This document shows, piece after piece, positions 40,864 to 61,116 of a stretch of 64,000 nucleotides of DNA (its first letter is position 1; the number at the start of each line of letters is the position of its first letter). The notes below the pieces were generated by a model. The model searched no databases and was not told the DNA's origin. It saw nothing but the letters and a program-made list of their open reading frames with translations. A program made the translations under genes and the position numbers. The DNA comes from Escherichia coli (lineage in GTDB: Bacteria > Pseudomonadota > Gammaproteobacteria > Enterobacterales > Enterobacteriaceae): the NCBI RefSeq assembly GCF_017348835.2, contig NZ_CP071375.1, one strand, 5' to 3'.

Positions 40864-41604
<741 letters not shown>

Positions 41605-41657
41605 TAACATCCAGGCGGCGTCCGAAAGCGCCGCCGCTCATCGTCTAAGGAGTACTT

Positions 41658-41882
41658 ATGAGCGCGCTATTTCTGGCTATTCCATTAACCATTTTTGTGC
41701 TGTTTGTTTTACCGATCTGGTTATGGCTGCATTACAGCAATCGTTCTGGTCGCAGTGAATTGTCGCAAAGTGAGCAGCAGCGATTAGCGCAACTGGCTGA
41801 TGAAGCAAAACGGATGCGCGAACGTATTCAGGCGCTGGAATCTATTCTTGATGCAGAACATCCGAACTGGAGGGATCGCTAA
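41658..41882 (+). CDS. pspB: phage shock protein B (74 aa)
   Basis: single TM; synteny. Confidence 0.93.
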   Translation: MSALFLAIPLTIFVLFVLPIWLWLHYSNRSGRSELSQSEQQRLAQLADEAKRMRERIQALESILDAEHPNWRDR

Positions 41883-42241
41883 TGGCGGGCATTAATCTCA
41901 ATAAAAAATTATGGCGTATTCCACAGCAGGGCATGGTCCGTGGCGTCTGCGCCGGGATTGCCAACTATTTTGATGTACCGGTAAAACTGGTGCGTATCCT
42001 GGTGGTGCTGTCGATTTTCTTCGGTCTGGCGCTGTTTACCCTGGTTGCTTACATCATTTTGTCATTTGCGCTTGATCCAATGCCGGACAACATGGCCTTT
42101 GGTGAGCAGCTACCTTCCAGCAGTGAATTGCTGGATGAAGTCGACCGTGAACTGGCGGCAAGTGAAACGCGTTTACGCGAGATGGAACGTTATGTCACTT
42201 CCGATACATTCACGTTACGTAGCCGTTTCCGTCAACTGTGA
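41882..42241 (+). CDS. pspC: phage shock protein C (119 aa)
   Basis: start overlaps pspB stop; PspC domain. Confidence 0.93.
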
Positions 42242-42249
42242 GGAAAGTT

Positions 42250-42471
42250 ATGAATACTCGCTGGCAACAGGCCGGGCAAAAGGTGAAGCCTGGTTTCAAA
42301 TTAGCAGGCAAGCTGGTACTTCTTACCGCACTGCGCTATGGCCCGGCGGGTGTGGCGGGCTGGGCGATAAAATCAGTTGCTCGCCGACCGCTGAAAATGT
42401 TGCTGGCTGTGGCGCTGGAACCGCTGTTAAGTCGGGCTGCCAATAAACTGGCACAGCGTTATAAAAGGTGA
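42250..42471 (+). CDS. pspD: phage shock protein D (73 aa from MNTRWQQ start)
   Basis: ORF track 42238..42471; shorter start chosen to match the canonical length. Confidence 0.85.
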
Positions 42472-42545
42472 GGGGAGTTTCGCAAAAATTGTTAAATCTC
42501 AGGCCTATAATGGATGGCAATTTTCATCCATAGAAGGACGCTTAC

Positions 42546-42860
42546 ATGTTTAAAAAAGGCTTACTTGCTCTGGCACTGGTGTTTTCACTGCCCGTTTTCG
42601 CCGCTGAACACTGGATCGATGTTCGTGTTCCAGAGCAGTATCAGCAAGAGCACGTTCAGGGGGCCATCAATATTCCCCTGAAGGAAGTGAAAGAGCGCAT
42701 TGCCACCGCCGTTCCGGATAAAAACGACACCGTGAAAGTGTATTGCAATGCCGGACGCCAGTCCGGGCAGGCAAAAGAGATCCTTAGCGAGATGGGATAT
42801 ACCCACGTTGAGAACGCCGGTGGCCTGAAAGACATCGCAATGCCGAAGGTCAAAGGTTAA
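42546..42860 (+). CDS. pspE: thiosulfate sulfurtransferase PspE (104 aa), rhodanese domain
   Basis: signal peptide; rhodanese active-site Cys (YCNAGRQS). Confidence 0.93.
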   Translation: MFKKGLLALALVFSLPVFAAEHWIDVRVPEQYQQEHVQGAINIPLKEVKERIATAVPDKNDTVKVYCNAGRQSGQAKEILSEMGYTHVENAGGLKDIAMPKVKG

Positions 42861-42899: not shown

Positions 42900-43070
42900 C
42901 TGTCACACCTTATTTACATCCCCATAGATTATTTGCGTCAGCTCACAAATACGCTTTTTCCCTGGTGAAAAATGATTTCCTGCGTGACTAAAACCCTTGT
43001 GCTCAATTGACAGTTTATTTTCTGCGGAGTAGTCTCTCGTTTCATGGGACCGCTACCACGGAAAGGCAAC

Positions 43071-44750: not shown

Positions 44751-44763
44751 AAAGGAACATCTC

Positions 44764-46056
44764 ATGATTAAATCAAAAATCGTGCTGTTATCAGCACTGG
44801 TTTCCTGCGCCCTGATTTCAGGCTGTAAAGAAGAAAATAAAACCCATGTATCCATCGAATTTATGCATTCTTCGGTGGAGCAGGAGCGTCAGGCAGTTAT
44901 CAGTAAATTGATTGCCCGTTTTGAAAAAGAAAACCCGGGCATCACCGTTAAACAAGTGCCAGTGGAAGAAGATGCCTATAACACCAAAGTCATCACCCTT
45001 TCACGTAGCGGCTCGCTGCCGGAAGTGATCGAAACCAGCCATGACTACGCCAAAGTTATGGACAAAGAGCAGCTTATCGATCGTAAAGCGGTTGCCACGG
45101 TCATCAGCAACGTTGGTGAAGGCGCGTTTTACGATGGCGTACTGCGTATTGTGCGCACCGAAGATGGGAGTGCCTGGACCGGTGTTCCTGTCAGCGCCTG
45201 GATTGGCGGCATCTGGTATCGCAAAGATGTGCTGGCAAAAGCCGGGCTGGAGGAGCCGAAAAACTGGCAGCAGCTGCTGGACGTTGCACAGAAACTGAAT
45301 GACCCGGCGAATAAAAAATACGGTATTGCGCTGCCTACAGCAGAAAGCGTGTTGACGGAACAATCCTTCTCCCAGTTTGCGTTATCCAACCAGGCCAACG
45401 TCTTTAACTCTGAAGGCAAAATCACCCTTGATACACCAGAGATGATGCAGGCGCTGACTTATTACCGCGACCTTGCCGCCAACACCATGCCGGGTTCTAA
45501 CGATATCATGGAAGTGAAAGACGCCTTTATGAACGGCACCGCGCCGATGGCGATTTACTCCACCTATATCCTTCCGGCTGTAATTAAAGAAGGCGACCCG
45601 AAAAACGTCGGTTTCGTGGTGCCAACCGAGAAAAACTCTGCGGTCTACGGCATGTTGACCTCGCTGACTATTACCGCCGGGCAAAAGACCGAAGAGACGG
45701 AAGCGGCGGAAAAATTTGTCACCTTTATGGAACAGGCGGACAACATTGCCGACTGGGTGATGATGTCGCCAGGCGCGGCGCTGCCAGTGAACAAAGCGGT
45801 GGTGACTACCGCCACCTGGAAAGACAACGACGTTATTAAGGCGCTGGGTGAACTACCGAATCAGCTAATCGGTGAACTGCCTAATATTCAGGTCTTTGGC
45901 GCAGTAGGGGATAAAAACTTTACCCGCATGGGCGATGTGACGGGTTCTGGTGTGGTGAGCTCCATGGTGCATAACGTCACCGTGGGTAAAGCCGATCTCC
46001 CTGGCACGCTACAAGCGAGCCAGAAAAAGTTGGATGAACTGATCGAACAGCACTAA
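44764..46056 (+). CDS. ycjN: ABC sugar transporter periplasmic binding protein YcjN (430 aa)
   Basis: signal peptide with lipobox-like LISGC; family 1 SBP. Confidence 0.9.
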   Translation: MIKSKIVLLSALVSCALISGCKEENKTHVSIEFMHSSVEQERQAVISKLIARFEKENPGITVKQVPVEEDAYNTKVITLSRSGSLPEVIETSHDYAKVMDKEQLIDRKAVATVISNVGEGAFYDGVLRIVRTEDGSAWTGVPVSAWIGGIWYRKDVLAKAGLEEPKNWQQLLDVAQKLNDPANKKYGIALPTAESVLTEQSFSQFALSNQANVFNSEGKITLDTPEMMQALTYYRDLAANTMPGSNDIMEVKDAFMNGTAPMAIYSTYILPAVIKEGDPKNVGFVVPTEKNSAVYGMLTSLTITAGQKTEETEAAEKFVTFMEQADNIADWVMMSPGAALPVNKAVVTTATWKDNDVIKALGELPNQLIGELPNIQVFGAVGDKNFTRMGDVTGSGVVSSMVHNVTVGKADLPGTLQASQKKLDELIEQH

Positions 46057-46076
46057 ACCCAGGACAGGAATCCGCA

Positions 46077-46958
46077 ATGAACAGGCTTTTTTCAGGTCGT
46101 TCCGATATGCCGTTTGCGCTGCTGCTTCTCGCGCCCAGCTTATTACTGCTGGGCGGTCTGGTGGCGTGGCCGATGGTGTCGAATATCGAAATCAGTTTTT
46201 TACGTCTGCCGCTCAATCCCAACATCGAGTCAACGTTTGTTGGGGTGAGTAACTATGTGCGCATTCTCTCCGATCCCGGCTTCTGGCACTCGCTGTGGAT
46301 GACGGTCTGGTATACGGCGCTGGTGGTGGCGGGCAGCACCGTGCTCGGGCTGGCCGTGGCGATGTTTTTCAACCGCGAGTTCCGCCTGCGCAAAACCGCG
46401 CGTTCGCTGGTGATCCTCTCCTACGTAACGCCGTCCATTTCGCTGGTGTTTGCCTGGAAATACATGTTCAACAACGGCTACGGCATTGTGAACTACCTCG
46501 GCGTCGATCTTCTGCATCTCTATGAGCAGGCACCGCTGTGGTTCGATAATCCGGGCAGTAGCTTTGTGCTGGTGGTGCTGTTCGCCATCTGGCGCTACTT
46601 CCCGTATGCCTTTATCTCGTTTCTGGCGATTTTGCAGACCATCGACAAATCGCTGTACGAAGCGGCAGAGATGGATGGCGCTAATGCCTGGCAGCGGTTT
46701 CGCATCGTCACGCTGCCCGCAATTATGCCGGTCCTGGCGACGGTGGTGACTCTGCGCACCATCTGGATGTTTTACATGTTCGCTGATGTTTATCTGCTGA
46801 CAACCAAGGTCGATATTCTCGGTGTCTATCTCTACAAAACCGCCTTTGCCTTTAATGACTTAGGGAAAGCGGCGGCGATCTCGGTGGTGCTCTTCATCAT
46901 TATTTTCGCTGTCATTCTGCTGACCAGGAAACGGGTGAACCTCAATGGCAACAAATAA
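46077..46958 (+). CDS. ycjO: ABC sugar transporter permease YcjO (293 aa)
   Basis: MalF/G-type permease with EAA loop. Confidence 0.9.
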   Translation: MNRLFSGRSDMPFALLLLAPSLLLLGGLVAWPMVSNIEISFLRLPLNPNIESTFVGVSNYVRILSDPGFWHSLWMTVWYTALVVAGSTVLGLAVAMFFNREFRLRKTARSLVILSYVTPSISLVFAWKYMFNNGYGIVNYLGVDLLHLYEQAPLWFDNPGSSFVLVVLFAIWRYFPYAFISFLAILQTIDKSLYEAAEMDGANAWQRFRIVTLPAIMPVLATVVTLRTIWMFYMFADVYLLTTKVDILGVYLYKTAFAFNDLGKAAAISVVLFIIIFAVILLTRKRVNLNGNK

Positions 46959-47787
46959 ACGCACACTCAGTCGTATCGGATTTTACTGCGGGCTGGCGCT
47001 GTTTCTCATCATCACGCTGTTTCCGTTTTTTGTGATGCTGATGACCTCGTTCAAGAGCGCAAAAGAGGCGATCTCGCTGCATCCTACGCTGCTGCCGCAA
47101 CAGTGGACGCTGGAGCATTACGTCGACATTTTTAACCCGGTGATATTCCCGTTTGTCGACTATTTCCGTAACAGCATGGTGGTGTCGGTAGTTTCATCCG
47201 TGGTGGCGGTATTTCTCGGCATTCTCGGGGCTTACGCGCTTTCCCGCCTGCGCTTTAAAGGGCGGATGACCATCAACGCCAGCTTTTACACGGTATACAT
47301 GTTCTCCGGCATTTTGCTGGTGGTGCCGCTGTTCAAAATCATCACCGCGCTTGGCATTTACGACACCGAGATGGCGCTGATCATTACCATGGTGACGCAA
47401 ACCCTGCCCACCGCCGTGTTTATGCTGAAAAGCTACTTCGACACCATCCCTGATGAGATCGAAGAAGCGGCGATGATGGATGGCCTCAACCGTCTGCAAA
47501 TTATCTTCCGTATCACCGTGCCCCTGGCGATGTCCGGGCTGATATCGGTGTTCGTCTACTGCTTTATGGTGGCGTGGAACGACTATCTGTTTGCGTCGAT
47601 TTTCCTCTCCAGCGCCAGCAATTTCACCTTACCAGTGGGCCTGAACGCGCTGTTCAGTACGCCTGATTACATCTGGGGACGCATGATGGCGGCCTCGCTG
47701 GTGACCGCATTGCCGGTGGTGATTATGTATGCGCTTTCGGAACGTTTTATTAAGAGTGGTTTGACCGCCGGTGGCGTGAAGGGCTAA
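46945..47787 (+). CDS. ycjP: ABC sugar transporter permease YcjP (280 aa)
   Basis: permease with EAA motif (EEAAMMDG); overlaps ycjO. Confidence 0.9.
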   Translation: MATNKRTLSRIGFYCGLALFLIITLFPFFVMLMTSFKSAKEAISLHPTLLPQQWTLEHYVDIFNPVIFPFVDYFRNSMVVSVVSSVVAVFLGILGAYALSRLRFKGRMTINASFYTVYMFSGILLVVPLFKIITALGIYDTEMALIITMVTQTLPTAVFMLKSYFDTIPDEIEEAAMMDGLNRLQIIFRITVPLAMSGLISVFVYCFMVAWNDYLFASIFLSSASNFTLPVGLNALFSTPDYIWGRMMAASLVTALPVVIMYALSERFIKSGLTAGGVKG

Positions 47788-47817
47788 AGCGGCCAGTTTA
47801 TTGACAAGGAGTTTTAA

Positions 47818-48813
47818 ATGAAAAAGTTAGTAGCCACGGCACCGCGCGTAGCGGCGCTGGTTGAGTATGAAGACAGGGCGATTTTAGCCAATGAAGTGAA
47901 GATCCGCGTGCGTTTCGGCGCGCCGAAGCACGGGACGGAAGTGGTCGATTTCCGCGCCGCCAGCCCGTTTATCGATGAAGACTTTAACGGTGAATGGCAG
48001 ATGTTCACCCCGCGCCCGGCAGATGCGCCGCGCGGCATTGAGTTTGGCAAATTCCAGCTTGGCAACATGGTGGTTGGCGACATTATCGAATGCGGCAGCG
48101 CCGTTACCGATTACGCGGTGGGCGACAGCGTATGCGGCTACGGCCCGCTTTCCGAAACGGTCATCATTAACGCGGTGAATAACTACAAGCTGCGCAAAAT
48201 GCCGAAAGGCAGTTCGTGGAAAAACGCCGTCTGCTACGACCCGGCGCAGTTTGCCATGAGCGGCGTGCGCGATGCCAACGTGCGCGTAGGGGATTTTGTG
48301 GTGGTGGTAGGGCTTGGCGCGATTGGTCAAATTGCCATCCAACTGGCGAAACGCGCTGGCGCGTCTGTGGTGATTGGCGTCGATCCTATCGCCCATCGCT
48401 GTGATATTGCCCGTCGCCACGGCGCGGATTTCTGCCTTAACCCCATCGGCACTGACGTAGGGAAAGAGATCAAAACGCTGACCGGCAAGCAGGGTGCCGA
48501 TGTGATTATCGAAACCAGCGGCTACGCCGACGCGCTGCAATCGGCACTGCGCGGCCTGGCTTACGGCGGCACCATCTCCTATGTCGCGTTTGCCAAACCG
48601 TTTGCCGAAGGTTTCAACCTCGGACGCGAAGCGCATTTCAATAACGCCAAAATTGTCTTCTCCCGCGCGTGCAGCGAACCGAACCCGGATTATCCGCGCT
48701 GGAGCCGTAAGCGTATTGAAGAAACCTGCTGGGAACTGCTGATGAACGGTTATCTCAATTGTGAAGATTTAATCGACCCGGTGGTGACCTTTGCTAACAG
48801 CCCGGAAAGCTAA
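47818..48813 (+). CDS. ycjQ: zinc-dependent MDR-family dehydrogenase YcjQ (331 aa as read here)
   Basis: AAGGAG RBS; Rossmann motif VVVGLGAIGQ; I remember K-12 listing a longer product, so the start is uncertain. Confidence 0.85.
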   Translation: MKKLVATAPRVAALVEYEDRAILANEVKIRVRFGAPKHGTEVVDFRAASPFIDEDFNGEWQMFTPRPADAPRGIEFGKFQLGNMVVGDIIECGSAVTDYAVGDSVCGYGPLSETVIINAVNNYKLRKMPKGSSWKNAVCYDPAQFAMSGVRDANVRVGDFVVVVGLGAIGQIAIQLAKRAGASVVIGVDPIAHRCDIARRHGADFCLNPIGTDVGKEIKTLTGKQGADVIIETSGYADALQSALRGLAYGGTISYVAFAKPFAEGFNLGREAHFNNAKIVFSRACSEPNPDYPRWSRKRIEETCWELLMNGYLNCEDLIDPVVTFANSPES

Positions 48814-48888
48814 ATGCAGTACGTTGACCAGCATCCGGAACAGAGCATCAAAATGGGCGTTACGTTTTAATTCAAAGGAATGAAAAAA

Positions 48889-49677
48889 ATGAAAATCGGC
48901 ACACAGAATCAGGCGTTCTTTCCGGAAAACATTCTAGAGAAATTTCGTTATATCAAAGAGATGGGCTTCGATGGTTTTGAAATCGACGGCAAACTGCTGG
49001 TCAACAACATCGAAGAAGTGAAAGCGGCGATCAAAGAAACTGGTTTACCGGTGACCACCGCCTGCGGTGGCTATAACGGCTGGATTGGCGACTTTATCGA
49101 AGAGCGTCGTCTTAATGGCTTAAAGCAGATAGAGCGCATTCTCGAAGCGCTGGCAGAAGTGGGCGGTAAAGGTATCGTCGTTCCGGCAGCGTGGGGCATG
49201 TTTACCTTCCGCTTACCGCCGATGACTTCACCGCGCAGCCTGGACGGCGACCGTAAAATGGTGAGCGATTCCCTGCGCGTACTGGAACAGGTAGCCGCGC
49301 GTACCGGAACCGTGGTGTATCTCGAACCGTTAAACCGTTATCAGGATCACATGATCAACACCCTCGCCGATGCCCGCCGTTACATCGTCGAAAACGATCT
49401 TAAACATGTGCAGATTATCGGCGATTTCTATCACATGAATATCGAAGAAGATAACCTGGCGCAGGCGCTGCATGACAACCGCGACCTGCTCGGTCATGTG
49501 CATATTGCCGATAACCATCGTTATCAGCCGGGCAGCGGCACCCTGGATTTCCACGCGCTGTTTGAACAACTGCGCGCCGATAATTATCAGGGCTATGTGG
49601 TGTATGAAGGGCGCATTCGGGCAGAAGATCCTGCCCAGGCGTACCGTGATTCTTTGGCCTGGTTGCGTACCTGCTAA
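48889..49677 (+). CDS. ycjR: sugar-phosphate isomerase/epimerase (TIM barrel) YcjR (262 aa from MKIGTQ start)
   Basis: xylose-isomerase-like TIM barrel sequence. Confidence 0.88.
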   Translation: MKIGTQNQAFFPENILEKFRYIKEMGFDGFEIDGKLLVNNIEEVKAAIKETGLPVTTACGGYNGWIGDFIEERRLNGLKQIERILEALAEVGGKGIVVPAAWGMFTFRLPPMTSPRSLDGDRKMVSDSLRVLEQVAARTGTVVYLEPLNRYQDHMINTLADARRYIVENDLKHVQIIGDFYHMNIEEDNLAQALHDNRDLLGHVHIADNHRYQPGSGTLDFHALFEQLRADNYQGYVVYEGRIRAEDPAQAYRDSLAWLRTC

Positions 49678-49686
49678 GAGGTCTTT

Positions 49687-50742
49687 GTGAAAAGTGCAAT
49701 GACAAGCTCTCCGCTGCGGGTCGCGATCATAGGCGCGGGCCAGGTGGCGGATAAAGTTCATGCTTCGTACTACTGCACCCGCAACGATCTGGAACTGGTG
49801 GCTGTCTGTGACAGCCGCCTTTCCCAGGCGCAGGCGCTGGCAGATAAATACGGTAATGCATCCGTGTGGGACGATCCGCAGGCCATGCTGCTGGCGGTGA
49901 AACCTGACGTGGTTAGCGTCTGCTCACCTAACCGTTTTCATTACGAACATACCCTGATGGCACTGGAAGCGGGCTGCCATGTGATGTGCGAAAAACCGCC
50001 CGCCATGACGCCAGAACAGGCGCGGGAAATGTGCGATATCGCGCGCAAACAGGGCAAGGTGCTGGCCTACGACTTTCACCATCGTTTTGCGCTCGATACG
50101 CAACAGCTGCGTGAACAGGTGACCAACGGCGTTTTGGGAGAGATTTACGTTACCACCGCCCGCGCCCTGCGTCGCTGCGGCGTTCCCGGCTGGGGTGTCT
50201 TTACCAATAAAGAACTGCAGGGTGGTGGCCCGCTGATCGACATCGGCATTCATATGCTGGATGCTGCAATGTATGTGCTGGGCTTTCCGGCGGTGAAAAG
50301 CGTGAATGCGCATAGTTTTCAAAAGATCGGCACGCAAAAGAGCTGTGGTCAATTTGGCGAGTGGGATCCGGCAACTTACAGCGTCGAAGATTCGCTGTTT
50401 GGCACCATTGAATTTCATAACGGCGGCATTCTGTGGCTGGAAACGTCATTTGCACTCAACATCCGCGAACAGTCGATTATGAACGTCAGCTTTTGCGGTG
50501 ATAAAGCCGGTGCGACGCTGTTTCCAGCACATATCTACACCGATAACAACGGTGAATTAATGACGCTGATGCAACGGGAAATGGCAGACGACAACCGCCA
50601 TTTGCGCAGCATGGAAGCCTTTATCAATCACGTACAGGGCAAGCCCGTGATGATAGCCGATGCCGAGCAGGGGTACATCATCCAGCAACTGGTGGCGGCG
50701 TTGTATCAATCCGCAGAAACAGGGACGCGTGTGGAATTATGA
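49687..50742 (+). CDS. ycjS: Gfo/Idh/MocA-family NAD(P)-dependent oxidoreductase YcjS (351 aa), GTG start
   Basis: N-terminal Rossmann fold (RVAIIGAGQVA). Confidence 0.88.
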   Translation: MKSAMTSSPLRVAIIGAGQVADKVHASYYCTRNDLELVAVCDSRLSQAQALADKYGNASVWDDPQAMLLAVKPDVVSVCSPNRFHYEHTLMALEAGCHVMCEKPPAMTPEQAREMCDIARKQGKVLAYDFHHRFALDTQQLREQVTNGVLGEIYVTTARALRRCGVPGWGVFTNKELQGGGPLIDIGIHMLDAAMYVLGFPAVKSVNAHSFQKIGTQKSCGQFGEWDPATYSVEDSLFGTIEFHNGGILWLETSFALNIREQSIMNVSFCGDKAGATLFPAHIYTDNNGELMTLMQREMADDNRHLRSMEAFINHVQGKPVMIADAEQGYIIQQLVAALYQSAETGTRVEL

Positions 50743-53006
50743 CCAGGCCAGTAACGTTATCAGAACCCCATTTCAGCCAGCATACCCTGAACAAGTATGC
50801 ATCACTGATGGCGCAGGGGAACGGCTATCTTGGGCTTCGCGCCAGCCATGAAGAAGATTACACGCGCCAGACGCGCGGCATGTATCTGGCGGGGCTGTAT
50901 CATCGGGCGGGTAAAGGTGAAATCAACGAACTGGTGAACCTGCCCGATGTGGTGGGGATGGAGATTGCCATAAATGGTGAGGTTTTCTCATTATCCCGCG
51001 AAGCCTGGCAGCGTGAGCTTGACTTTGCCAGTGGCGAATTACGCCGCAGCGTTGTCTGGCGTACCAGCAACGGCACAGGTTACACCATCGCCAGCCGTCG
51101 CTTTGTTTCGGCAGACCAACTGCCGCTCATTGCGCTGGAAATCACTATTACTCCACTGGACGCCGACGCGTCAGTGCTGATTTCAACAGGCATTGACGCC
51201 ACGCAAACCAATCACGGTCGCCAACATTTCGACGAAACCCAGGTGCGGGTGTTTGGTCAGCATCTGATGCAGGGGATCTACACCACCCAGGATGGACGCA
51301 GTGATGTGGCCATCAGCTGTTGCTGTAAGGTGAGCGGTGATGTGCAGCAATGCTATACCGCCAAAGAGCGCCGTTTGCTGCAACATACCAGCGCGCAACT
51401 TCACGCAGGCGAAACGCTGACGCTGCAAAAACTGGTGTGGATCGACTGGCGGGATGACAGGCAAGCTGCTTTAGACGAGTGGGGCAGTGCGTCGCTTCGC
51501 CAGCTTGAAATGTGTGCGCAGCAGAGTTACGACCAACTTCTTGCAGCATCAACAGAAAACTGGCGTCAGTGGTGGCAGAAACGTCGTATCACGGTAAACG
51601 GCGGCGATGCGCACGATCAGCAAGCGTTAGATTATGCGCTTTATCATCTGCGCATCATGACGCCTGCTCACGACGAGCGCAGCAGTATTGCGGCAAAAGG
51701 CTTAACCGGAGAAGGCTACAAAGGCCACGTTTTCTGGGATACAGAAGTATTTTTGCTACCGTTTCATCTGTTTAGCGATCCGACGGTTGCCCGAAGTTTA
51801 CTGCGTTATCGCTGGCACAACTTGCCAGGCGCGCAGGAGAAAGCGCGACGCAACGGCTGGCAGGGCGCGCTATTTCCGTGGGAGAGCGCACGCAGTGGTG
51901 AAGAAGAGACGCCGGAATTTGCCGCCATTAACATTCGCACCGGGCTGCGGCAAAAAGTGGCCTCGGCGCAGGCTGAACATCATCTGGTCGCCGATATCGC
52001 CTGGGCGGTTATTCAATACTGGCAGACAACGGGGGATGAAAGTTTCATTGCTCATGAAGGCATAGCGCTACTTCTGGAGAGCGCAAAGTTCTGGATTAGC
52101 CGCGCGGTAAGGGTTAACGACCGTCTGGAAATTCATGATGTTATTGGGCCAGACGAATATACCGAACATGTCAATAATAACGCCTTCACCAGCTATATGG
52201 CGTATTACAACGTCCAGCAGGCGCTGAACATCGCTCGTCAATTTGGCTGTAGCGACGTTGCGTTTATCCATCGCGCCGAAATGTTCCTCAAAGAGTTGTG
52301 GCTGCCAGAAACTCAGCCCGACGGCGTTTTGCCGCAGGATGATTCGTTTATGGCTAAGCCGGCGATTAATCTGGCGAAATACAAAGCGGCGGCGGGGAAG
52401 CAAACCATTCTGCTGGATTATTCACGCGCAGAAGTGAACGAGATGCAGATCCTCAAACAAGCTGATGTGGTGATGCTCAATTACATGCTGCCGGAGCAGT
52501 TCTCAGCGGCATCGTGTCTTGCCAATCTGCAATTTTATGAACCGCGCACTATTCACGACTCGTCATTAAGTAAAGCAATCCACGGCATTGTTGCCGCACG
52601 CTGTGGCCTGCTGACCCAAAGTTATCAGTTCTGGCGCGAGGGGACTGAAATCGATCTTGGTGCTGATCCGCATAGTTGTGATGATGGTATCCATGCTGCC
52701 GCAACTGGCGCTATCTGGCTGGGGGCGATTCAGGGTTTTGCCGGGGTGAGCGTGCGTGACGGTGAATTGCATCTAAATCCGGCGTTACCTGAGCAGTGGC
52801 AACAGTTGTCTTTCCCTCTGTTCTGGCAGGGCTGCGAATTACAGGTCACGCTCGACGCGCAGCGTATTGCGATTCGAACTTCTGCGCCCGTTTCACTGCG
52901 TTTGAACGGCCAGCTTATATCCGTGGCTGAAAAATCTGTTTTCTGTTTGGGTGATTATATTTTGCCCTTCAATGGGACCGCTACCACGCATCAGGAGGAT
53001 GAATGA
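50739..53006 (+). CDS. ycjT: GH65-family glycoside phosphorylase (kojibiose phosphorylase-like) YcjT (755 aa)
   Basis: GH65 sequence; overlaps ycjS and ycjU by 4 nt. Confidence 0.9.
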
Positions 53007-53662
53007 AACTGCAAGGGGTAATTTTCGATCTGGATGGTGTAATCACCGATACCGCGCATCTGCATTTCCAGGCGTGGCAGCAGATTGCCGCTGAAATTGG
53101 CATCAGCATTGATGCGCAGTTTAACGAATCCCTAAAAGGGATTAGCCGCGATGAGTCTCTGCGGCGCATTCTGCAATACGGGGGCAAAGAGGGCGACTTT
53201 AACTCGCAGGAGCGGGCGCAACTGGCGTATCGCAAAAATCTGCTCTACGTCCACTCACTGCGCGAACTGACGGTTAATGCCGTTCTGCCGGGGATCCGGC
53301 CTTTGCTGGCAGATCTCCGCGCACAGCAGATCCCGGTAGGGCTGGCTTCCGTCTCCCTGAATGCGCCGACGATTTTAGCGGCGCTGGAGCTGCGCGAGTT
53401 TTTCACCTTCTGCGCGGATGCTTCCCAACTTAAAAACTCGAAACCGGATCCGGAAATCTTTCTCGCTGCTTGTGCCGGGCTGGGCGTGCCGCCGCAGGCA
53501 TGTATCGGCATTGAAGATGCGCAGGCGGGCATTGACGCCATTAACGCCAGCGGTATGCGCTCGGTGGGGATCGGCGCGGGCTTAACCGGGGCGCAATTAC
53601 TATTGCCTTCAACGGACTCCCTGACCTGGTCGCGGTTATCGGCCTTCTGGCAAAACGTATAG
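53003..53662 (+). CDS. ycjU: beta-phosphoglucomutase YcjU (219 aa), HAD superfamily
   Basis: HAD motif I DLDGVITD. Confidence 0.92.
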
Positions 53663-53675
53663 CAAAGGAATCAAC

Positions 53676-54758
53676 ATGGCTCAGCTTTCGTTACAACATA
53701 TTCAAAAAATCTACGATAACCAGGTGCATGTGGTGAAGGACTTCAACCTGGAAATTGCCGATAAAGAGTTCATCGTATTTGTCGGCCCGTCGGGCTGCGG
53801 TAAATCGACCACCCTGCGCATGATTGCCGGGCTTGAGGAGATCAGCGGCGGCGATCTGTTGATCGACGGCAAACGAATGAATGACGTTCCAGCCAAAGCA
53901 CGCAATATCGCGATGGTGTTCCAGAACTACGCGTTGTATCCGCATATGACGGTCTACGACAACATGGCGTTTGGCCTGAAGATGCAAAAAATCGCCAAAG
54001 AGGTGATTGATGAGCGGGTGAACTGGGCGGCGCAAATTCTCGGCCTGCGTGAGTACCTGAAACGCAAGCCGGGCGCGCTTTCCGGCGGGCAACGCCAGCG
54101 TGTGGCGCTCGGGCGGGCGATTGTGCGCGAAGCGGGCGTGTTTTTAATGGATGAACCGCTCTCTAACCTTGATGCCAAGCTGCGCGTACAAATGCGCGCA
54201 GAGATCAGCAAGCTGCATCAGAAACTGAACACCACCATGATCTACGTGACCCACGATCAGACCGAAGCGATGACCATGGCGACGCGGATTGTGATTATGA
54301 AAGACGGGATTGTTCAGCAAGTGGGTGCGCCGAAAACCGTTTATAACCAACCCGCGAATATGTTTGTTGCCGGATTTATTGGATCACCAGCGATGAATTT
54401 TATTCGCGGCACGATCGATGGCGATAAATTCGTTACGGAAACGCTTAAATTAACCATTCCCGAAGAGAAATTAGCGGTTCTGAAAACACAGGAAAGTTTG
54501 CATAAGCCCATCGTGATGGGAATACGCCCGGAAGATATTCATCCGGACGCGCAAGAGGAAAATAACATTTCCGCCAAAATTAGCGTGGCAGAATTAACCG
54601 GTGCGGAATTTATGCTCTACACCACGGTTGGGGGGCACGAGTTAGTGGTCCGTGCTGGTGCGTTAAATGATTATCATGCAGGAGAAAATATCACCATTCA
54701 TTTTGATATGACGAAATGTCATTTCTTTGATGCAGAAACGGAAATAGCAATTCGCTAA
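53676..54758 (+). CDS. ycjV: ABC sugar transporter ATP-binding protein YcjV, MalK-like, intact 360 aa
   Basis: Walker A GPSGCGKST, signature LSGGQRQR, C-terminal TOBE-like domain; reading frame uninterrupted. Confidence 0.9.
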   Translation: MAQLSLQHIQKIYDNQVHVVKDFNLEIADKEFIVFVGPSGCGKSTTLRMIAGLEEISGGDLLIDGKRMNDVPAKARNIAMVFQNYALYPHMTVYDNMAFGLKMQKIAKEVIDERVNWAAQILGLREYLKRKPGALSGGQRQRVALGRAIVREAGVFLMDEPLSNLDAKLRVQMRAEISKLHQKLNTTMIYVTHDQTEAMTMATRIVIMKDGIVQQVGAPKTVYNQPANMFVAGFIGSPAMNFIRGTIDGDKFVTETLKLTIPEEKLAVLKTQESLHKPIVMGIRPEDIHPDAQEENNISAKISVAELTGAEFMLYTTVGGHELVVRAGALNDYHAGENITIHFDMTKCHFFDAETEIAIR

Positions 54759-54802
54759 ATACAGGGGGAAGGCATTCCCCCAGGATAATACAAGGAACAA
54801 TA

Positions 54803-55708
54803 ATGAAAAAGTTATTACCCTGTACCGCACTGGTGATGTGTGCGGGAATGGCCTGCGCACAGGCCGAGGAAAAGAACGACTGGCACTTTAATATCGGCGC
54901 GATGTACGAAATAGAAAACGTCGAGGGTTATGGCGAAGATATGGATGGGCTGGCGGAGCCTTCTGTCTATTTTAATGCCGCCAACGGGCCGTGGAGAATT
55001 TCTCTGGCCTATTATCAGGAAGGGCCGGTAGATTATAGCGCGGGTAAACGTGGAACGTGGTTTGATCGCCCGGAGCTGGAGGTGCATTATCAGTTCCTCG
55101 AAAGCGATGATTTCAGTTTCGGCCTGACCGGCGGTTTCCGTAATTATGGTTATCACTACGTTGATGAACCGGGTAAAGACACGGCGAATATGCAGCGCTG
55201 GAAAATCGCGCCAGACTGGGATGTGAAACTGACTGACGATTTACGTTTCAACGGTTGGTTGTCGATGTATAAATTTGCCAACGATTTGAACACGACCGGT
55301 TACGCTGATACCCGTGTCGAAACGGAAACAGGTCTGCAATATACCTTCAACGAAACGGTTGCTTTGCGAGTGAACTATTATCTCGAGCGCGGCTTCAATA
55401 TGGACGACAGCCGCAATAACGGTGAGTTTTCCACGCAAGAAATTCGCGCCTATTTGCCGCTGACGCTCGGCAACCACTCAGTGACGCCATATACGCGCAT
55501 TGGGTTGGATCGCTGGAGTAACTGGGACTGGCAGGATGATATAGAACGTGAAGGCCATGATTTTAACCGTGTGGGTTTATTTTACGGTTATGATTTCCAG
55601 AATGGTCTTTCCGTTTCGCTGGAATACGCGTTTGAGTGGCAGGATCACGACGAAGGCGACAGCGATAAATTCCATTATGCAGGTGTCGGCGTAAATTACT
55701 CGTTCTGA
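54803..55708 (+). CDS. ompG: outer-membrane porin OmpG (301 aa)
   Basis: signal peptide; beta-barrel with C-terminal YSF. Confidence 0.93.
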   Translation: MKKLLPCTALVMCAGMACAQAEEKNDWHFNIGAMYEIENVEGYGEDMDGLAEPSVYFNAANGPWRISLAYYQEGPVDYSAGKRGTWFDRPELEVHYQFLESDDFSFGLTGGFRNYGYHYVDEPGKDTANMQRWKIAPDWDVKLTDDLRFNGWLSMYKFANDLNTTGYADTRVETETGLQYTFNETVALRVNYYLERGFNMDDSRNNGEFSTQEIRAYLPLTLGNHSVTPYTRIGLDRWSNWDWQDDIEREGHDFNRVGLFYGYDFQNGLSVSLEYAFEWQDHDEGDSDKFHYAGVGVNYSF

Positions 55709-55722
55709 TAATGGGCTAAATT

Positions 55723-55796
55723 GCCGGATGCGGCGCGAGTACTTTATCCGATCTATAAATGTAGGCCGGATAAGATGCGCTAGCATCGCATCCGGC
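55723..55796. repeat. two REP-like palindromes (BIME-like) between convergent ompG and ycjW
   Basis: GCCGGATGCGGCGCGAGTACTTTATCCG and GGCCGGATAAGATGCGC...GCATCCGGC. Confidence 0.7.
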
Positions 55797-55818
55797 ATTC
55801 AGGCAAGGTAGCTGGTAT

Positions 55819-56817
55819 TTATTTCAGCGTCATATGCGTGGCAACGGTAATATTCTGTGGTGACGGTTTTCCAGAAATTAAGCGGAATAATAACTCGCAG
55901 CTTTGTTGACCTAACTCCTGCGTCGGAACATCGATGCCGCCCGGTGCAGGCGTTAAAATAAATGACAGCGTTTCATTGCTATAACCCACCACCGCTAACT
56001 GCTGCGGAATAGCAATATTTTTCTCTGCTGCCGCACGATAAATGCTCATTAATTTCAGGCTGTCAGTGGCAAACACCGCCTCAGGCAACGGTGACTGGCT
56101 TAATAATTCTCTCGCGGCTTGCAGTGCTGTTTCATGGGTATAACCGCCGTCAACAATCCATTCATCACGCACTGCAATATTATGCGCGGACAGACTTTGC
56201 TTATAACCATTTACCCGATCCACTGAAACATGGACATCAAGCGGTGCATGAAGGCAGGCAATGTTTTTATGTCCATTCTCAATTAATGCATCGGTTAGCG
56301 CAATGCTGTCACCAAAATTATCGGTATCGACAGAATAAACATGGGCATATTGACCTTCAACTTTGCCAATCACCACGACAGGAATATCGTATTTATCAAG
56401 TTGGGCAAAAAATGACTCATCCGCTGGCGAACTTAGCATAATAATGCCTTTAATCATTTTCTGCTTAATTGTGCTTTCACATTTTTGTAAGTCTTCTGCC
56501 AGGTTGTGCGACGTTTGTAATATCACGTCGAAACCTTCTTCTTCCGCTTTGGCGGTGATGGCATGTAGAACTTCTGAGAAAAACGGATTACCCGCCGTAG
56601 TTTTGGTCGAACGGGTAGAAATCACCATAATGGCATCAAAACCCGAAGAGGTCAGCGCGCGGGCCAGCTTGTTTGGCTGATACTGTAATTCTTCAATGGC
56701 CCGTAACACTTTTTCGCGCGCTTCCGGGGAGATATTGGTTTGCTTATTCAGCACGCGTGATACGGTGGATTTTGATACGCCTGCAACCCTGGCAATATCA
56801 TAAATAGTAGGGGACAT
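55819..56817 (-). CDS. ycjW: LacI-family transcriptional regulator YcjW (332 aa)
   Basis: N-terminal LacI HTH ([20 protein letters not shown]). Confidence 0.92.
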
Positions 56818-56971
56818 AGGTCAGGAACTCCGTCCGAACGTGAATGCTGCACATCTTATGGAGTTCGCCCGTCGATGACAACACGGGCAGTTGATAATCA
56901 ATGGTCTGGCCCCCACATTCATATCCTTACGAACGATTTTTTTCTGGTCTTCAGAGCAGCACAGGACAGCA

Positions 56972-58369
56972 ATGAAGCGACTTAAAAATGAACTCAATGC
57001 GCTGGTGAATCGGGGTGTCGACAGACATCTGCGCCTCGCTGTAACCGGACTTAGCCGCAGCGGCAAAACAGCGTTTATCACCGCGATGGTTAATCAGTTG
57101 CTTAATATTCATGCCGGAGCACGCTTGCCGCTGTTAAGTGCGGTGCGTGAAGAGCGCCTGCTGGGCGTAAAACGCATTCCCCAGCGTGACTTTGGCATTC
57201 CGCGCTTCACCTATGATGAAGGGCTGGCGCAGTTATATGGCGATCCACCCGCCTGGCCAACGCCAACGCGCGGCGTCAGTGAAATCCGCCTGGCGCTACG
57301 TTTTAAATCGAATGATTCGCTGCTACGCCACTTTAAGGATACCTCCACGCTGTATCTGGAGATTGTGGATTACCCCGGCGAATGGTTGCTCGACCTGCCG
57401 ATGCTGGCGCAGGATTACTTAAGCTGGTCGCGCCAGATGACGGGCTTACTCAATGGTCAGCGCGGCGAATGGTCGGCGAAATGGCAAATGATGTGCGAAG
57501 GGCTGGACCCGCTAGCGCCTGCCGACGAAAACCGGCTGGCAGACATTGCCGCCGCGTGGACCGATTATCTCCACCACTGTAAACAGCAGGGGCTGCACTT
57601 TATTCAGCCAGGGCGCTTTGTCTTGCCGGGAGATATGGCAGGTGCGCCCGCGCTGCAATTCTTCCCGTGGCCGGATGTCGATGCCTGGGGCGAGTCCAAA
57701 CTCGCGCAGGCCGATAAGCATACCAATGCCGGAATGCTGCGCGAGCGGTTTAATTATTACTGCGAGAAGGTGGTGAAGGGGTTCTATAAGAACCATTTTC
57801 TGCGCTTTGACCGCCAGATTGTGCTGGTGGATTGCCTGCAACCTCTCAACAGTGGGCCACAGGCATTTAATGATATGCGTCTGGCGCTGACGCAGCTGAT
57901 GCAAAGTTTTCACTACGGGCAGCGAACCCTGTTCCGGCGTTTGTTTTCGCCGGTTATCGATAAGCTATTGTTTGCTGCCACTAAAGCAGACCATGTGACC
58001 ATCGATCAGCACGCTAATATGGTTTCATTACTGCAACAACTGATTCAGGATGCCTGGCAAAATGCGGCGTTCGAAGGGATCAGCATGGACTGCCTGGGGC
58101 TGGCGTCAGTTCAGGCGACCACCAGCGGCATTATTGATGTTAACGGTGAGAAAATCCCGGCGCTGCGTGGTAATCGACTTAGCGATGGCGCACCGCTCAC
58201 TGTTTATCCTGGCGAAGTTCCCGCACGTTTGCCTGGTCAGGCGTTCTGGGATAAGCAAGGCTTCCAGTTTGAGGCATTTCGTCCGCAGGTGATGGATGTC
58301 GACAAACCGCTGCCGCATATTCGTCTTGATGCCGCGCTGGAATTTTTAATAGGAGATAAATTGCGATGA
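56972..58369 (+). CDS. ycjX: YcjX, P-loop NTPase of the DUF463 family (465 aa from MKRLKNE start)
   Basis: Walker A-like GLSRSGKT; ORF track starts at 56891. Confidence 0.88.
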
Positions 58370-59427
58370 CCGAACCGTTAAAACCACGTATTGATTTCGA
58401 CGGTCCGCTGGAGGTCGATCAGAATCCAAAATTCAGGGCGCAGCAGACCTTTGACGAAAATCAGGCGCAAAATTTTGCCCCGGCCACGCTCGATGAAGCG
58501 CCTGAAGAAGAGGGGCAAGTTGAAGCGGTAATGGATGCAGCGTTACGTCCGAAACGCAGCCTGTGGCGCAAAATGGTGATGGGCGGGCTGGCTCTGTTTG
58601 GCGCAAGCGTTGTCGGGCAGGGTGTACAGTGGACAATGAATGCCTGGCAAACTCAGGACTGGGTGGCGCTGGGTGGATGTGCCGCTGGGGCATTGATTAT
58701 CGGCGCTGGCGTAGGTTCTGTGGTAACAGAGTGGCGGCGCTTATGGCGCTTGCGACAGCGCGCCCATGAACGCGACGAAGCGCGCGATTTGTTGCACAGC
58801 CACGGCACGGGCAAAGGCCGCGCATTTTGCGAAAAACTGGCGCAGCAGGCGGGTATTGATCAGTCGCATCCGGCGCTACAACGCTGGTATGCCTCAATCC
58901 ATGAAACGCAAAACGACCGTGAAGTGGTCAGCCTGTATGCGCATTTGGTCCAGCCAGTTTTAGATGCCCAGGCGCGGCGCGAAATCAGCCGTTCGGCGGC
59001 GGAATCAACGTTGATGATTGCGGTCAGCCCGCTGGCGTTGGTCGATATGGCGTTTATCGCCTGGCGCAATCTGCGTTTAATTAATCGCATCGCCACGCTG
59101 TATGGCATTGAACTGGGATATTACAGCCGTTTGCACCTGTTCAAGCTGGTATTGCTGAATATCGCTTTCGCCGGAGCCAGCGAACTGGTGCGCGAAGTGG
59201 GGATGGACTGGATGTCGCAAGATCTCGCTGCTCGTTTGTCTACCCGCGCAGCTCAGGGGATTGGTGCAGGACTTCTGACGGCACGACTCGGGATTAAAGC
59301 TATGGAGCTTTGCCGCCCGCTGCCGTGGATTGACGATGACAAACCTCGCCTTGGGGATTTCCGTCGTCAGCTTATCGGTCAGGTGAAAGAAACGCTGCAA
59401 AAAGGCAAAACGCCCAGCGAAAAATAA
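58366..59427 (+). CDS. ycjF: YcjF, DUF697/UPF0283 membrane protein (353 aa)
   Basis: 4-nt overlap with ycjX; TM segments. Confidence 0.88.
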
Positions 59428-59486: not shown

Positions 59487-59504
59487 TGTCAATGATTGTT
59501 GACA
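59487..59504. promoter_or_regulatory. TyrR-box-like palindrome TGTCAA-N6-TTGACA upstream of tyrR (candidate autoregulatory site)
   Basis: perfect palindrome fitting the TGTAAA-N6-TTTACA pattern, about 70 bp upstream of tyrR ATG. Confidence 0.5.
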
Positions 59505-59574: not shown

Positions 59575-61116
59575 ATGCGTCTGGAAGTCTTTTGTGAAGA
59601 CCGACTCGGTCTGACCCGCGAATTACTCGATCTACTCGTGCTAAGAGGCATTGATTTACGCGGTATTGAGATTGATCCCATTGGGCGAATCTACCTCAAT
59701 TTTGCTGAACTGGAGTTTGAGAGCTTCAGCAGTCTGATGGCCGAAATACGCCGTATTGCTGGTGTTACCGATGTGCGTACTGTCCCGTGGATGCCTTCTG
59801 AACGTGAGCATCTGGCGTTGAGCGCGTTACTGGAGGCGTTGCCTGAACCTGTGCTCTCTGTCGATATGAAAAGCAAAGTGGATATGGCAAACCCGGCGAG
59901 CTGTCAGCTTTTTGGGCAAAAATTGGATCGCCTGCGCAACCATACCGCCGCACAATTGATTAACGGCTTTAATTTTTTACGCTGGCTGGAAAGCGAACCG
60001 CAAGATTCCCATAACGAGCATGTCGTTATTAATGGGCAGAATTTCCTGATGGAGATTACGCCTGTTTATCTTCAGGATGAAAATGATCAACACGTCCTGA
60101 CCGGTGCGGTGGTGATGTTGCGATCAACGATTCGTATGGGCCGTCAGTTGCAAAATGTCGCCGCCCAGGACGTCAGCGCCTTTAGTCAAATTGTCGCCGT
60201 CAGCCCGAAAATGAAGCATGTTGTCGAACAGGCGCAGAAACTGGCGATGCTAAGCGCGCCGCTGCTGATTACGGGTGACACAGGTACAGGTAAAGATCTC
60301 TTTGCCTACGCCTGTCACCAGGCAAGCCCCAGAGCGGGCAAACCTTACCTGGCGCTGAATTGCGCGTCTATACCAGAAGATGCGGTCGAGAGTGAACTGT
60401 TTGGTCATGCTCCGGAAGGGAAGAAAGGGTTCTTTGAGCAGGCGAACGGTGGTTCGGTGCTGTTGGATGAAATAGGGGAAATGTCACCACGGATGCAGGC
60501 GAAATTACTGCGTTTCCTTAATGATGGCACTTTCCGTCGGGTTGGCGAAGACCATGAGGTGCATGTCGATGTGCGGGTGATTTGCGCTACGCAGAAGAAT
60601 CTGGTCGAACTGGTGCAAAAAGGCATGTTCCGTGAAGATCTCTATTATCGTCTGAACGTGTTGACGCTCAATCTGCCGCCGCTACGTGACTGTCCGCAGG
60701 ACATCATGCCGTTAACTGAGCTGTTCGTCGCCCGCTTTGCCGACGAGCAGGGCGTGCCGCGTCCGAAACTGGCCGCTGACCTGAATACTGTACTTACACG
60801 TTATGCGTGGCCGGGAAATGTGCGGCAGTTAAAGAACGCTATCTATCGCGCACTGACACAACTGGACGGTTATGAGCTGCGTCCACAGGATATTTTGTTG
60901 CCGGATTATGACGCCGCAACGGTAGCCGTGGGCGAAGATGCGATGGAAGGTTCGCTGGACGAAATCACCAGCCGTTTTGAACGCTCGGTATTAACCCAGC
61001 TTTATCGCAATTATCCCAGCACGCGCAAACTGGCAAAACGTCTCGGCGTTTCACATACCGCGATTGCCAATAAGTTGCGGGAATATGGTCTGAGTCAGAA
61101 GAAGAACGAAGAGTAA
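59575..61116 (+). CDS. tyrR: transcriptional regulator TyrR (513 aa from MRLEVF start)
   Basis: ACT-PAS N-terminus, sigma54-activator-like AAA+ core, C-terminal HTH. Confidence 0.95.
   Translation: MRLEVFCEDRLGLTRELLDLLVLRGIDLRGIEIDPIGRIYLNFAELEFESFSSLMAEIRRIAGVTDVRTVPWMPSEREHLALSALLEALPEPVLSVDMKSKVDMANPASCQLFGQKLDRLRNHTAAQLINGFNFLRWLESEPQDSHNEHVVINGQNFLMEITPVYLQDENDQHVLTGAVVMLRSTIRMGRQLQNVAAQDVSAFSQIVAVSPKMKHVVEQAQKLAMLSAPLLITGDTGTGKDLFAYACHQASPRAGKPYLALNCASIPEDAVESELFGHAPEGKKGFFEQANGGSVLLDEIGEMSPRMQAKLLRFLNDGTFRRVGEDHEVHVDVRVICATQKNLVELVQKGMFREDLYYRLNVLTLNLPPLRDCPQDIMPLTELFVARFADEQGVPRPKLAADLNTVLTRYAWPGNVRQLKNAIYRALTQLDGYELRPQDILLPDYDAATVAVGEDAMEGSLDEITSRFERSVLTQLYRNYPSTRKLAKRLGVSHTAIANKLREYGLSQKKNEE

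Follow-up and report, generated by a model that had tools for sequence, protein, structure and literature searches.

The 64,000-nucleotide (nt) stretch of Escherichia coli DNA analyzed in this study (NCBI RefSeq assembly GCF_017348835.2, contig NZ_CP071375.1; hereafter the window) includes the gene pair ycjX-ycjF, found in the order ycjV-ompG-ycjW(-)-ycjX-ycjF-tyrR-tpx(-)-ycjG. The two genes share a start/stop overlap that is retained in distant relatives, and their products may form a GTPase complex tethered at the inner membrane. The pair is known and annotated, and its existence is not new: an earlier, sequence-only reading of the window had treated it as still open, although published work already covers the pair, its regulation, and the structure of YcjX. 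The same reading held that function could not be read from the sequence, and this statement stands; no published functional assignment or functional study was found in literature searches on ycjXF, DUF463, and DUF697. The core features of the locus are the following.

56972-58369, + strand: ycjX coding sequence, 465 amino acids; soluble Ras-like GTPase of the YcjX family (DUF463)
58366-59427, + strand: ycjF coding sequence, 353 amino acids; predicted inner-membrane protein (TIGR01620, DUF697)
58366-58369, + strand: ATGA start/stop overlap, composed of the ycjF ATG (58366-58368) and the ycjX TGA (58367-58369)
58352-58356, + strand: internal Shine-Dalgarno-like GGAGA in the 3' end of ycjX, 9 nt 5' of the ycjF ATG

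In the list of open reading frames, ycjX starts at ATG 56972 and ycjF ends with TAA 59425-59427. The ends of both coding sequences were identical in the RefSeq annotation of a 100%-identical E. coli chromosome, and both frames and the 4-nt overlap lie exactly where the sequence-only reading had placed them. A longer, TTG-initiated frame for ycjX (56891, 492 amino acids) was dropped, as the RefSeq start is ATG 56972 and the homology among orthologues begins at this ATG. Additionally, the -10 element of the sigma32-type promoter described below is located downstream of TTG 56891, which argues that ATG 56972 is the true start. Of 5426 complete E. coli genomes, 5413 carry the ycjXF segment. The 2.8-kb segment 56800-59600 was at least 99% identical in just two of the 5415 matching E. 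coli genomes, both of them pig isolates, while nearly all others were 95-99% identical (best 98.4%), which places the window in an allele or lineage that is in the minority at this locus.

YcjX matched the Pfam family PF04317 (DUF463) over the entire profile (positions 1-443 of 443) with an E value of 1.6e-181 and a score of 604.5 bits (cut-off 25). Four segments of the protein were of particular relevance.

57047-57070, + strand: G1/Walker A motif GLSRSGKT, YcjX residues 26-33, read directly from the sequence
57368-57382, + strand: G3/Walker B motif D133-Y-P-G-E137, a DxxG followed by an invariant Glu
57980-57991, + strand: G4 guanine-specificity motif T337-K-A-D340 ([NT]KxD)
58262-58330, + strand: conserved C-terminal stretch F431..F436-x-P438..P448-H-I-R-x-D453, candidate docking surface for the YcjF tail

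All three GTPase motifs, namely G1 (GxxxxGK[ST]), G3 (DxxG), and G4 ([NT]KxD), are present in YcjX and were invariant in 21-34 orthologues. Invariant residues included G26, G31, K32, and T33 in the orthologue alignments, the whole of D133-YPG-E137 among 34 paired and 21 YcjX sequences, and K338, D340, and H341 among 21-34 orthologues. Outside the nucleotide motifs, F431, F436, P438, H449, R451, and D453 were invariant or nearly so in the alignments. A sequence scan of YcjX revealed no hydrophobic segment. A search of PDB sequences with YcjX returned the Shewanella entries named 'YcjX Stress Protein' (6NZ4, 6NZ5, and 6NZ6) with an E value of 5e-124; the Shewanella oneidensis YcjX is 47% identical over the full length, and the fold of YcjX is the same as that of the solved protein (6NZ4). 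The protein of the window is hence a member of the YcjX family with no substantial difference from the solved representative. The earlier description of YcjX as a P-loop NTPase of the DUF463 family with the motif GLSRSGKT was confirmed, and the motifs and the solved relative narrow it to a Ras-like GTPase. From the motifs and the names of the PDB entries (YcjX-GDP), YcjX would be expected to bind and hydrolyze GTP. The three structures reportedly originate from work by Tsai et al. of 2019 (J Mol Biol 431:3179), the title of which is said to speak of a GTP-binding protein that is Ras-like. A reference to the YcjX structure of Tsai et al. appears in PMC7680126 and PMC11237479.

The nearest structural neighbors of the YcjX G domain were switch GTPases, including Rag-like proteins, Arl/Arf/Sar1, the beta subunit of the signal recognition particle receptor (SRbeta), and G-alpha. 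A profile of 21 YcjX sequences searched against PDB sequences found solely YcjX itself and chance P-loop matches with E values of at least 0.085. These switch-type neighbors, together with the lack of any other sequence relative in the PDB, indicated YcjX as a distinct family with a G domain that is switch-like rather than mechanochemical. The sequence-only reading had proposed a membrane-associated NTPase machine, and its interpretation was supported, with the refinement that 'switch' fits better than 'machine' given that the nearest structural relatives of the G domain are switch GTPases. A split dynamin-like machine, in which YcjX would serve as the GTPase head and YcjF as the helical stalk or paddle of a device in which GTP hydrolysis would power membrane remodelling or repair, similar to DynA, LeoA, or IniA, appeared quite unlikely: no dynamin-family protein was found among the top 60 structural neighbors of the G domain, which is not of the dynamin type, and Pfam identified no dynamin domain in YcjX or YcjF.

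The resemblance to switch GTPases is also limited in extent. Relative to the Rag/Gtr-Ragulator, SRbeta-SRalpha, Arf/Arl/Sar1, and G-alpha systems, YcjX showed a sequence identity of 10-19% and no sequence-profile relationship, and it differs from the switch GTPases by large extra helical and beta domains within its 465 amino acids. YcjF, in turn, is unrelated to Ragulator, SRalpha, and the G-protein-coupled receptors. The proposed likeness of YcjXF to membrane-tethered switch GTPases is one of working principle and not of family membership.

YcjF matched the NCBIfam model TIGR01620 over its full length (E 5.6e-129, 430.5 bits, cut-off 160) and the Pfam domain PF05128 (DUF697) at residues 183-341 (E 4.3e-55, 186.3 bits, cut-off 27.7). 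The protein is thus a member of the YcjF family (TIGR01620, PF05128/DUF697, UPF0283), encoded directly 3' of a DUF463 gene. Its main segments are the following.

58381-58398, + strand: motif K6-P-R-I-D-F11 in the N-terminal tail of YcjF, short, linear, and conserved; the tail is otherwise disordered and is cytoplasmic by the predicted topology
58561-58725, + strand: predicted transmembrane helical hairpin, residues about 66-120, with Arg/Lys-rich flanks on both sides
58912-59388, + strand: DUF697 domain (residues 183-341), where YcjF is most conserved

An AlphaFold model of YcjF, built from an alignment of 108 sequences, was all-alpha, with a predicted local distance difference test (pLDDT) score of 84 and a predicted template modelling (pTM) score of 0.73. 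It contained a disordered tail at residues 1-60, helices at 66-95 and 99-144, and further helices up to residue 347. The hairpin was the only clearly hydrophobic part of the protein. Its three-residue, predicted periplasmic loop (96-98) lacks both K and R, and residues 121-140 after the second transmembrane helix are Arg-rich; by the positive-inside rule, the Arg/Lys-rich flanks and the loop free of K and R argue that both ends of the hairpin are cytoplasmic (N-in, C-in). The hairpin and its flanks support the prediction that YcjF is an integral membrane protein, and, together with the PF05128 and TIGR01620 matches, they support the sequence-only assignment of YcjF as a membrane protein with DUF697. 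The tail was variable among 108 diverse sequences except for hydrophobic anchor positions at 11, 23, 29, and 34; position 11 was F in 72 of 104 diverse sequences and otherwise L, I, or V. Neither a sequence search nor a fold search found a solved relative of YcjF. A word-indexed homologue search with YcjF returned close enterobacterial YcjF proteins alone and no credible fusion. Similarly, in an exhaustive search of representatives, the best 150 of 1453 matches were all stand-alone proteins, and the longer ones carried no extra Pfam domain. Three YcjF entries from the word-indexed search with an extra Pfam domain or an unusual length were set aside; each occurs on a single contig, and they look like artefacts of assembly or gene calling. 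In other phyla, DUF697 may occur joined to different GTPase domains, but no weight is placed on this here.

Within DUF697, residues D200, D227, R234, Y246, G298, and R317 were invariant among the 108 diverse sequences. The helices of this domain have a mean hydropathy of just 0.6-0.9 with three to four Arg/Lys each, which suggests that they may be bundled in the cytoplasm or at the membrane interface and not cross the membrane. This composition bears on a reading in which YcjF would be a channel or transporter gated by the nucleotide state of YcjX, comparable to the control of transport by the G domain in FeoB. The placement of the invariant residues D227, R234, E273, Q297, and R307 inside these moderately hydrophobic, most-conserved helices would agree with such a channel, but the helices may not span the membrane, the fold search returned generic helices only, and no transporter family was matched in Pfam or NCBIfam. 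A channel was considered improbable, to the same degree as the dynamin-like machine.

The conservation of the pair was surveyed in a sample of one genome per species by a scan with the YcjX alignment, which resulted in 80 loci from the Enterobacterales, Vibrionaceae, Aeromonas, Pasteurellaceae, Alteromonadales, and Halomonadaceae. YcjF adjoined YcjX, within 70 nt, in 70 of the 80 loci, and it was located within 3 kb in three more. In the window, the junction between the two genes reads GGAGATAAATTGCGATGACC, with four bases common to both. A 4-nt overlap (ATGA or GTGA) was observed in 61 of 73 species loci, and most of the others had gaps of 1-68 nt. The overlap also occurs in the alphaproteobacterial pair of Azospirillum, and, among YcjF relatives of about 30% identity, the DUF463 gene overlapped by 4 nt in five of six further loci (7 nt in the sixth). 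The overlap is retained far beyond chance. The conserved pairing noted by the sequence-only reading thus extends across Gamma- and Alphaproteobacteria with the start/stop overlap kept.

The overlap is accompanied by a signature at the codon level. The GGAGA pentamer is composed of the Gly461 codon of ycjX and the first two bases of the Asp462 codon, and its spacing of exactly 9 nt was found in all 61 overlapping loci. The Gly461 codon was GGA in 52 and GGG in eight of these loci (60/61), yielding GGAGA or GGGGA, whereas GGA or GGG was present in just seven of 16 non-overlapping loci, several of which have a Shine-Dalgarno sequence of their own in the spacer; the species are related, and these counts are hence not independent. 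For comparison, just 15% of the Gly codons across ycjX as a whole are GGA, and it is rare codons that keep the pentamer in place. The difference between overlapping and non-overlapping loci indicates selection for an internal ribosome-binding site, and, together with the overlap, it supports the translational coupling that the sequence-only reading had proposed.

These observations also bear on another account of the locus, in which ycjX and ycjF would merely be co-transcribed neighbors of unrelated function and the overlap an incidental product of compact operons. Overlaps of 4 nt are common in bacterial operons, and the two genes are unlinked in some Pasteurellaceae, both of which agree with this account. 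Against it, the adjacency is still seen where YcjF identity has fallen to about 30% and in different classes of Proteobacteria, the codon signature points to an internal Shine-Dalgarno sequence that has been kept, the divergence rates of YcjX and YcjF are correlated, and the linked-chain model gives order to the YcjF tail. Unrelated functions were considered very unlikely.

Several loci departed from the common arrangement. In one locus of the Pasteurellaceae (L064, 8404-10533), an OmpA-like lipoprotein gene and an insertion sequence-type transposase gene are located between ycjX and ycjF. In another (L067, 8410-12281), the next genes after ycjX are ppc and purR, on the opposite strand, and a search of the 7 kb downstream of ycjX detected no ycjF. 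The junction was likewise broken in the Pasteurellaceae loci L063 and L077. A decayed pair was found on a 38-kb plasmid of the epsilonproteobacterium Sulfurospirillum (NZ_CP045454.1, 2966-5408; L083), where YcjX is split into two coding sequences followed by short fragments similar to DUF697, with genes for Sir2, a macro-domain protein, an S24 peptidase, and transposases as neighbors. Additionally, in a locus with a 30%-identical YcjF (L084), the pair is followed at 7239-8441 by a gene for a 400-amino-acid regulator of the sigma54-activator type (Sigma54_activat and HTH_50); a regulator of this class after ycjF, as in the ycjF-tyrR linkage of most gammaproteobacterial loci, may be a conserved feature.

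A possible direct contact between the two proteins was modeled by folding YcjX and YcjF as one chain, joined by a Gly/Ser linker of 30 residues, with an alignment of 34 paired genomes of less than 76% mutual identity. The AlphaFold model of the linked E. coli chain, with 848 residues of which about 110 were disordered, reached a pTM of 0.75. In this model, YcjF residues 6-15 had a pLDDT of 83, compared to about 63-64 and no structure in YcjF alone; the alignment for YcjF alone was deeper than that for the linked chain. Residues I9-D10-F11 of YcjF were modeled as a beta-strand, and isolated beta-bridge residues appeared in YcjX at 436 and 450, within the invariant C-terminal stretch, where they may pair with the strand of the YcjF tail. 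The linked-chain model is compatible with direct binding of YcjX to YcjF, and the predicted pattern of the tail fits a short linear motif that would dock onto YcjX through strand addition.

Upstream of ycjX, elements resembling a heat-shock promoter were identified.

56890-56896, + strand: sigma32-type -35-like element GTTGATA, upstream of ycjX
56911-56918, + strand: sigma32-type -10-like element CCCCACAT, 14 nt after GTTGATA

The combination GTTGATA-N14-CCCCACAT agrees with CTTGAAA-N14-CCCCATnT at 11 of 14 positions. The sigma32-like elements keep their position in the Enterobacteriaceae, regardless of whether the upstream gene is ycjW or pspD/pspE, and they agree with a published sigma32 promoter for ycjX, which is credited to Nonaka 2006 in PMC3041696. 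A ycjX-ycjF-tyrR transcription unit with a sigma32 promoter is described as experimentally verified in E. coli (Huvet et al., PMC3041696). In addition, ycjXF-tyrR is listed in the PgrR regulon (PMC5934670), and both ycjX and ycjF were increased at the RNA and protein level during phiX174 infection (PMC8125068). No sigma54-type site was found 5' of ycjX in the window, while the site of pspA was recovered as a positive control: a sigma54-type promoter, TGGCACGCAAATTGTA, is located at 40869-40884, 52 nt 5' of the pspA ATG (40936), with one mismatch to TGGCAC-N5-TTGCW. No terminator-like site was found in the ycjF-tyrR spacer, in a generic scan for sigma70 promoters and terminators that here gave results at or below the shuffled expectation.

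The phage-shock (psp) genes are located further upstream in the window.

39792-40784, - strand: pspF, divergent from pspA
40936-42860, + strand: pspABCDE, the usual 5' neighbor of ycjX, here displaced

The psp genes are 14.1 kb upstream of ycjX, and the gene immediately 5' of ycjX is ycjW on the opposite strand. A 14-kb sugar-utilisation block, ycjM..ycjV-ompG-ycjW (43044-56817), is located between pspE and ycjX. The pair does not belong to a PspF/sigma54-dependent psp unit in this window, while it does in other species. Among the 80 species loci, a psp gene on the same strand was directly 5' of ycjX in 51 (PspD in 25, PspC in 23, and PspE in three), and the gap between pspD and ycjX was just 7 nt in Yersinia, Serratia, Rahnella, and Pantoea. 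In Escherichia albertii (L001) and in a single genome with the label E. coli (L002), the order pspFABCDE-ycjXF-tyrR-tpx-ycjG is contiguous; the 14-kb block is missing there, and pspE is located 121-123 nt 5' of ycjX. In Citrobacter (L020), the order ompG-ycjW(-)-pspE-ycjX places the block on the other side of pspE; compared to the window, this indicates that the insertion point of the block relative to pspE differs between genera. A distant YcjF relative is also found near pspF-pspABC-DUF463-DUF697. Given this widespread adjacency, the order in E. coli is probably derived, with an insertion that split the pair from psp. The sequence-only statement that the pair is downstream of psp holds loosely in the window, while the direct adjacency elsewhere makes the link stronger than had been claimed.

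Published work also covers the link to psp. A pspABCD-ycjXF operon is known from Yersinia enterocolitica (PMC3467454), nearly all species with pspA/B have ycjX and ycjF side by side (Huvet et al., PMC3041696), and DUF463, which is restricted to Proteobacteria, is frequently next to psp (PMC9239133). The ycjXF genes are not among the core Psp components (PMC3467454). Compared to the Yersinia operon, the window contains the same two genes, and the psp adjacency of that operon is the commonest arrangement; the pair of the window differs in its distance of 14 kb from pspE, its own sigma32-type promoter, and the lack of a sigma54 site.

A dedicated Psp effector arm, in which YcjXF would act with PspA/B/C to preserve the integrity of the inner membrane or the proton-motive force, is a narrower version of the tethered-switch explanation and not exclusive of it. 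The sigma32 control in E. coli would then be a secondary rewiring after the separation. The psp genes directly 5' of ycjX in the majority of loci with their short gaps, the linkage at the distant YcjF relative, the contiguous loci L001 and L002, the Yersinia operon, and the co-induction of the pair with psp genes in phiX174 infection (PMC8125068) are all in favor of it. On the other side, the pair occurs with no psp genes nearby in Vibrio, Azospirillum, Salinicola, and others, ycjX is not preceded by a sigma54 site in this window, and the Yersinia deletions and the Psp-free genomes described below speak against a dedicated role. The Psp arm appears possible but rather doubtful.

Several further observations were made on the neighborhood of the pair. 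A total of 55 conjugative plasmids of Enterobacter hormaechei, of about 300-380 kb, matched the YcjF query at 96.5% identity. The plasmid examined among them (NZ_AP025834.1, 160318-178833; L081), of type IncHI2, carries the order ompG-ycjW-pspE-ycjX-ycjF-tyrR-tpx-ycjG-mpaA-mppA, a chromosomal-looking segment with the same gene order as the Citrobacter locus, which suggests that the stress pair and tyrR are occasionally mobilised as a second copy. In the chromosomes, tyrR was found within about 1.1-3.4 kb after ycjF in most loci of the species sample. A perfect 18-bp inverted repeat, TGTCAATGATTGTTGACA, is present in the ycjF-tyrR spacer of the window, 71 nt 5' of the tyrR ATG (59575). It resembles a TyrR box, TGTAAA-N6-TTTACA, and it probably belongs to the autoregulation of tyrR.

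59575-61116, + strand: tyrR, conserved neighbor 3' of ycjF
59487-59504: inverted repeat in the ycjF-tyrR spacer

A role in defense was also considered, in which the pair would belong to the DO-GTPase type of systems for conflict or against phages (Kaur, Burroughs, Iyer, Aravind 2020, eLife 9:e52696), where an effector is under the control of a GTPase switch once infection occurs. YcjX has in common with these systems a TRAFAC-type G domain and a Glu after DxxG; its invariant E137 in DYPGE corresponds to the Walker B Glu by which Kaur et al. 2020 define them. The psp-linked GTPase is labelled 'DO-GTPase family' in a 2024 survey of Psp (PMC11237479), and the pair is induced by phiX174 (PMC8125068). 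However, the DO-GTPase systems consist of two paralogous GTPases, a zinc ribbon, GAP1, and variable effectors, while YcjXF has a single GTPase, no zinc ribbon, no GAP1 partner, and no variable effector, and is a stable locus of the core genome. The neighbors tyrR, tpx, and ycjG are conserved and ycjF matched DUF697 alone, which is not a DO-GTPase neighborhood; the pair occupies one conserved locus in nearly all of the complete E. coli genomes, with a synteny that is stable across orders. Neither protein matched a PADLOC model at E values up to 0.1, and no YcjX homologue was found in phages. The defense reading was rejected on the negative PADLOC and phage searches and on the failure of three of the four defining features of DO-GTPase systems, and it was considered very improbable.

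The explanation favored here is a two-part GTPase switch on the inner membrane, which would be made under envelope and protein-folding stress. YcjX would be the soluble Ras-like GTPase, and YcjF would be anchored by one helical hairpin with its N-terminal tail and DUF697 domain facing the cytoplasm. Both proteins would be produced from one mRNA by coupled translation, through the ATGA overlap and the in-frame GGAGA 9 nt before the ycjF start. YcjF would recruit YcjX to the membrane, with the tail motif K-x-R-I-x-F as one part of the contact, where it may contribute a strand to the conserved region at the C terminus of YcjX. Depending on its nucleotide state, YcjX would then govern some activity on the cytoplasmic side of the membrane by which cells cope with membrane damage, alongside Psp. 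Expression would rise upon heat or envelope stress, through sigma32 in this E. coli and through PspF/sigma54 where the pair forms the tail of the psp operon; here, the pair would have been parted from psp by the 14-kb insertion and would be driven by its own sigma32-type heat-shock promoter. The core of this explanation, a YcjX-YcjF complex tethered at the membrane, is rated somewhat better than even, and any specific output of the complex is rated far below it.

A further reading would be a stress sensor of the 'receptor plus G protein' kind. YcjF would sense membrane perturbation through its hairpin and DUF697 and would act as an exchange factor, or as an anchor specific to the GTP state, for the Ras-like YcjX held by its tail, and from YcjX-GTP the signal would pass on to a target in the cytoplasm. 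This reading was considered unlikely.

A number of observations weigh against, or limit the support for, the tethered switch and its link to Psp. The modeled interface is read solely from the pTM, the local gain in pLDDT, and the bridges assigned by DSSP; the alignment behind it is shallow, with 34 paired rows only, and the artificial linker could favor contact. The pairwise divergence of YcjX and YcjF is correlated at r = 0.975, with a partial r of 0.81 when controlling for TyrR, but such a mirror-tree correlation is inflated by shared phylogeny and lends weak support. The Pasteurellaceae are true exceptions, in which ycjX and ycjF are separated or unlinked, which shows that they need not be coupled. 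Taken alone, the sigma32 motif is only moderately unusual, as its score is reached by 2.5% of random 200-nt windows. In Yersinia, non-polar deletions of ycjXF had no robust phenotype, and robust deletion phenotypes were confined to PspF/A/B/C (PMC3467454), and DUF463 is also present in 14% of the genomes without Psp (PMC9239133). Finally, psp and ycjXF are under different sigma factors in E. coli, which, as Huvet et al. argue, makes a functional link between them less likely (PMC3041696).

The ycjXF pair is a conserved 'known unknown' of the heat-shock regulon of E. coli, and numerous relatives carry it within the phage-shock operon. It is strongly induced under stress, hardly any E. coli genome lacks it, and a homologue of YcjX has been crystallised. 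To this, the present analysis added the retention of the overlap in distant relatives, the Gly461 signature, the survey of psp adjacency, the linked-chain model, and the structural neighbors of the G domain. The codon-level evidence suggests that a fixed co-production of YcjX and YcjF is under selection, and the widespread direct linkage to psp probably came first, until the 14-kb insertion interrupted it in E. coli. Two handles were gained, namely the predicted docking motif of YcjF at K6-F11 and the conserved C-terminal patch on YcjX. If the sensor reading were true, the pair would be a branch that signals within the envelope and heat-shock response, in parallel with PspBC-PspA, and not a structural repair factor. 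If the tethered-switch model is true, the pair would represent a small-GTPase module of a new type in the envelope stress of bacteria.

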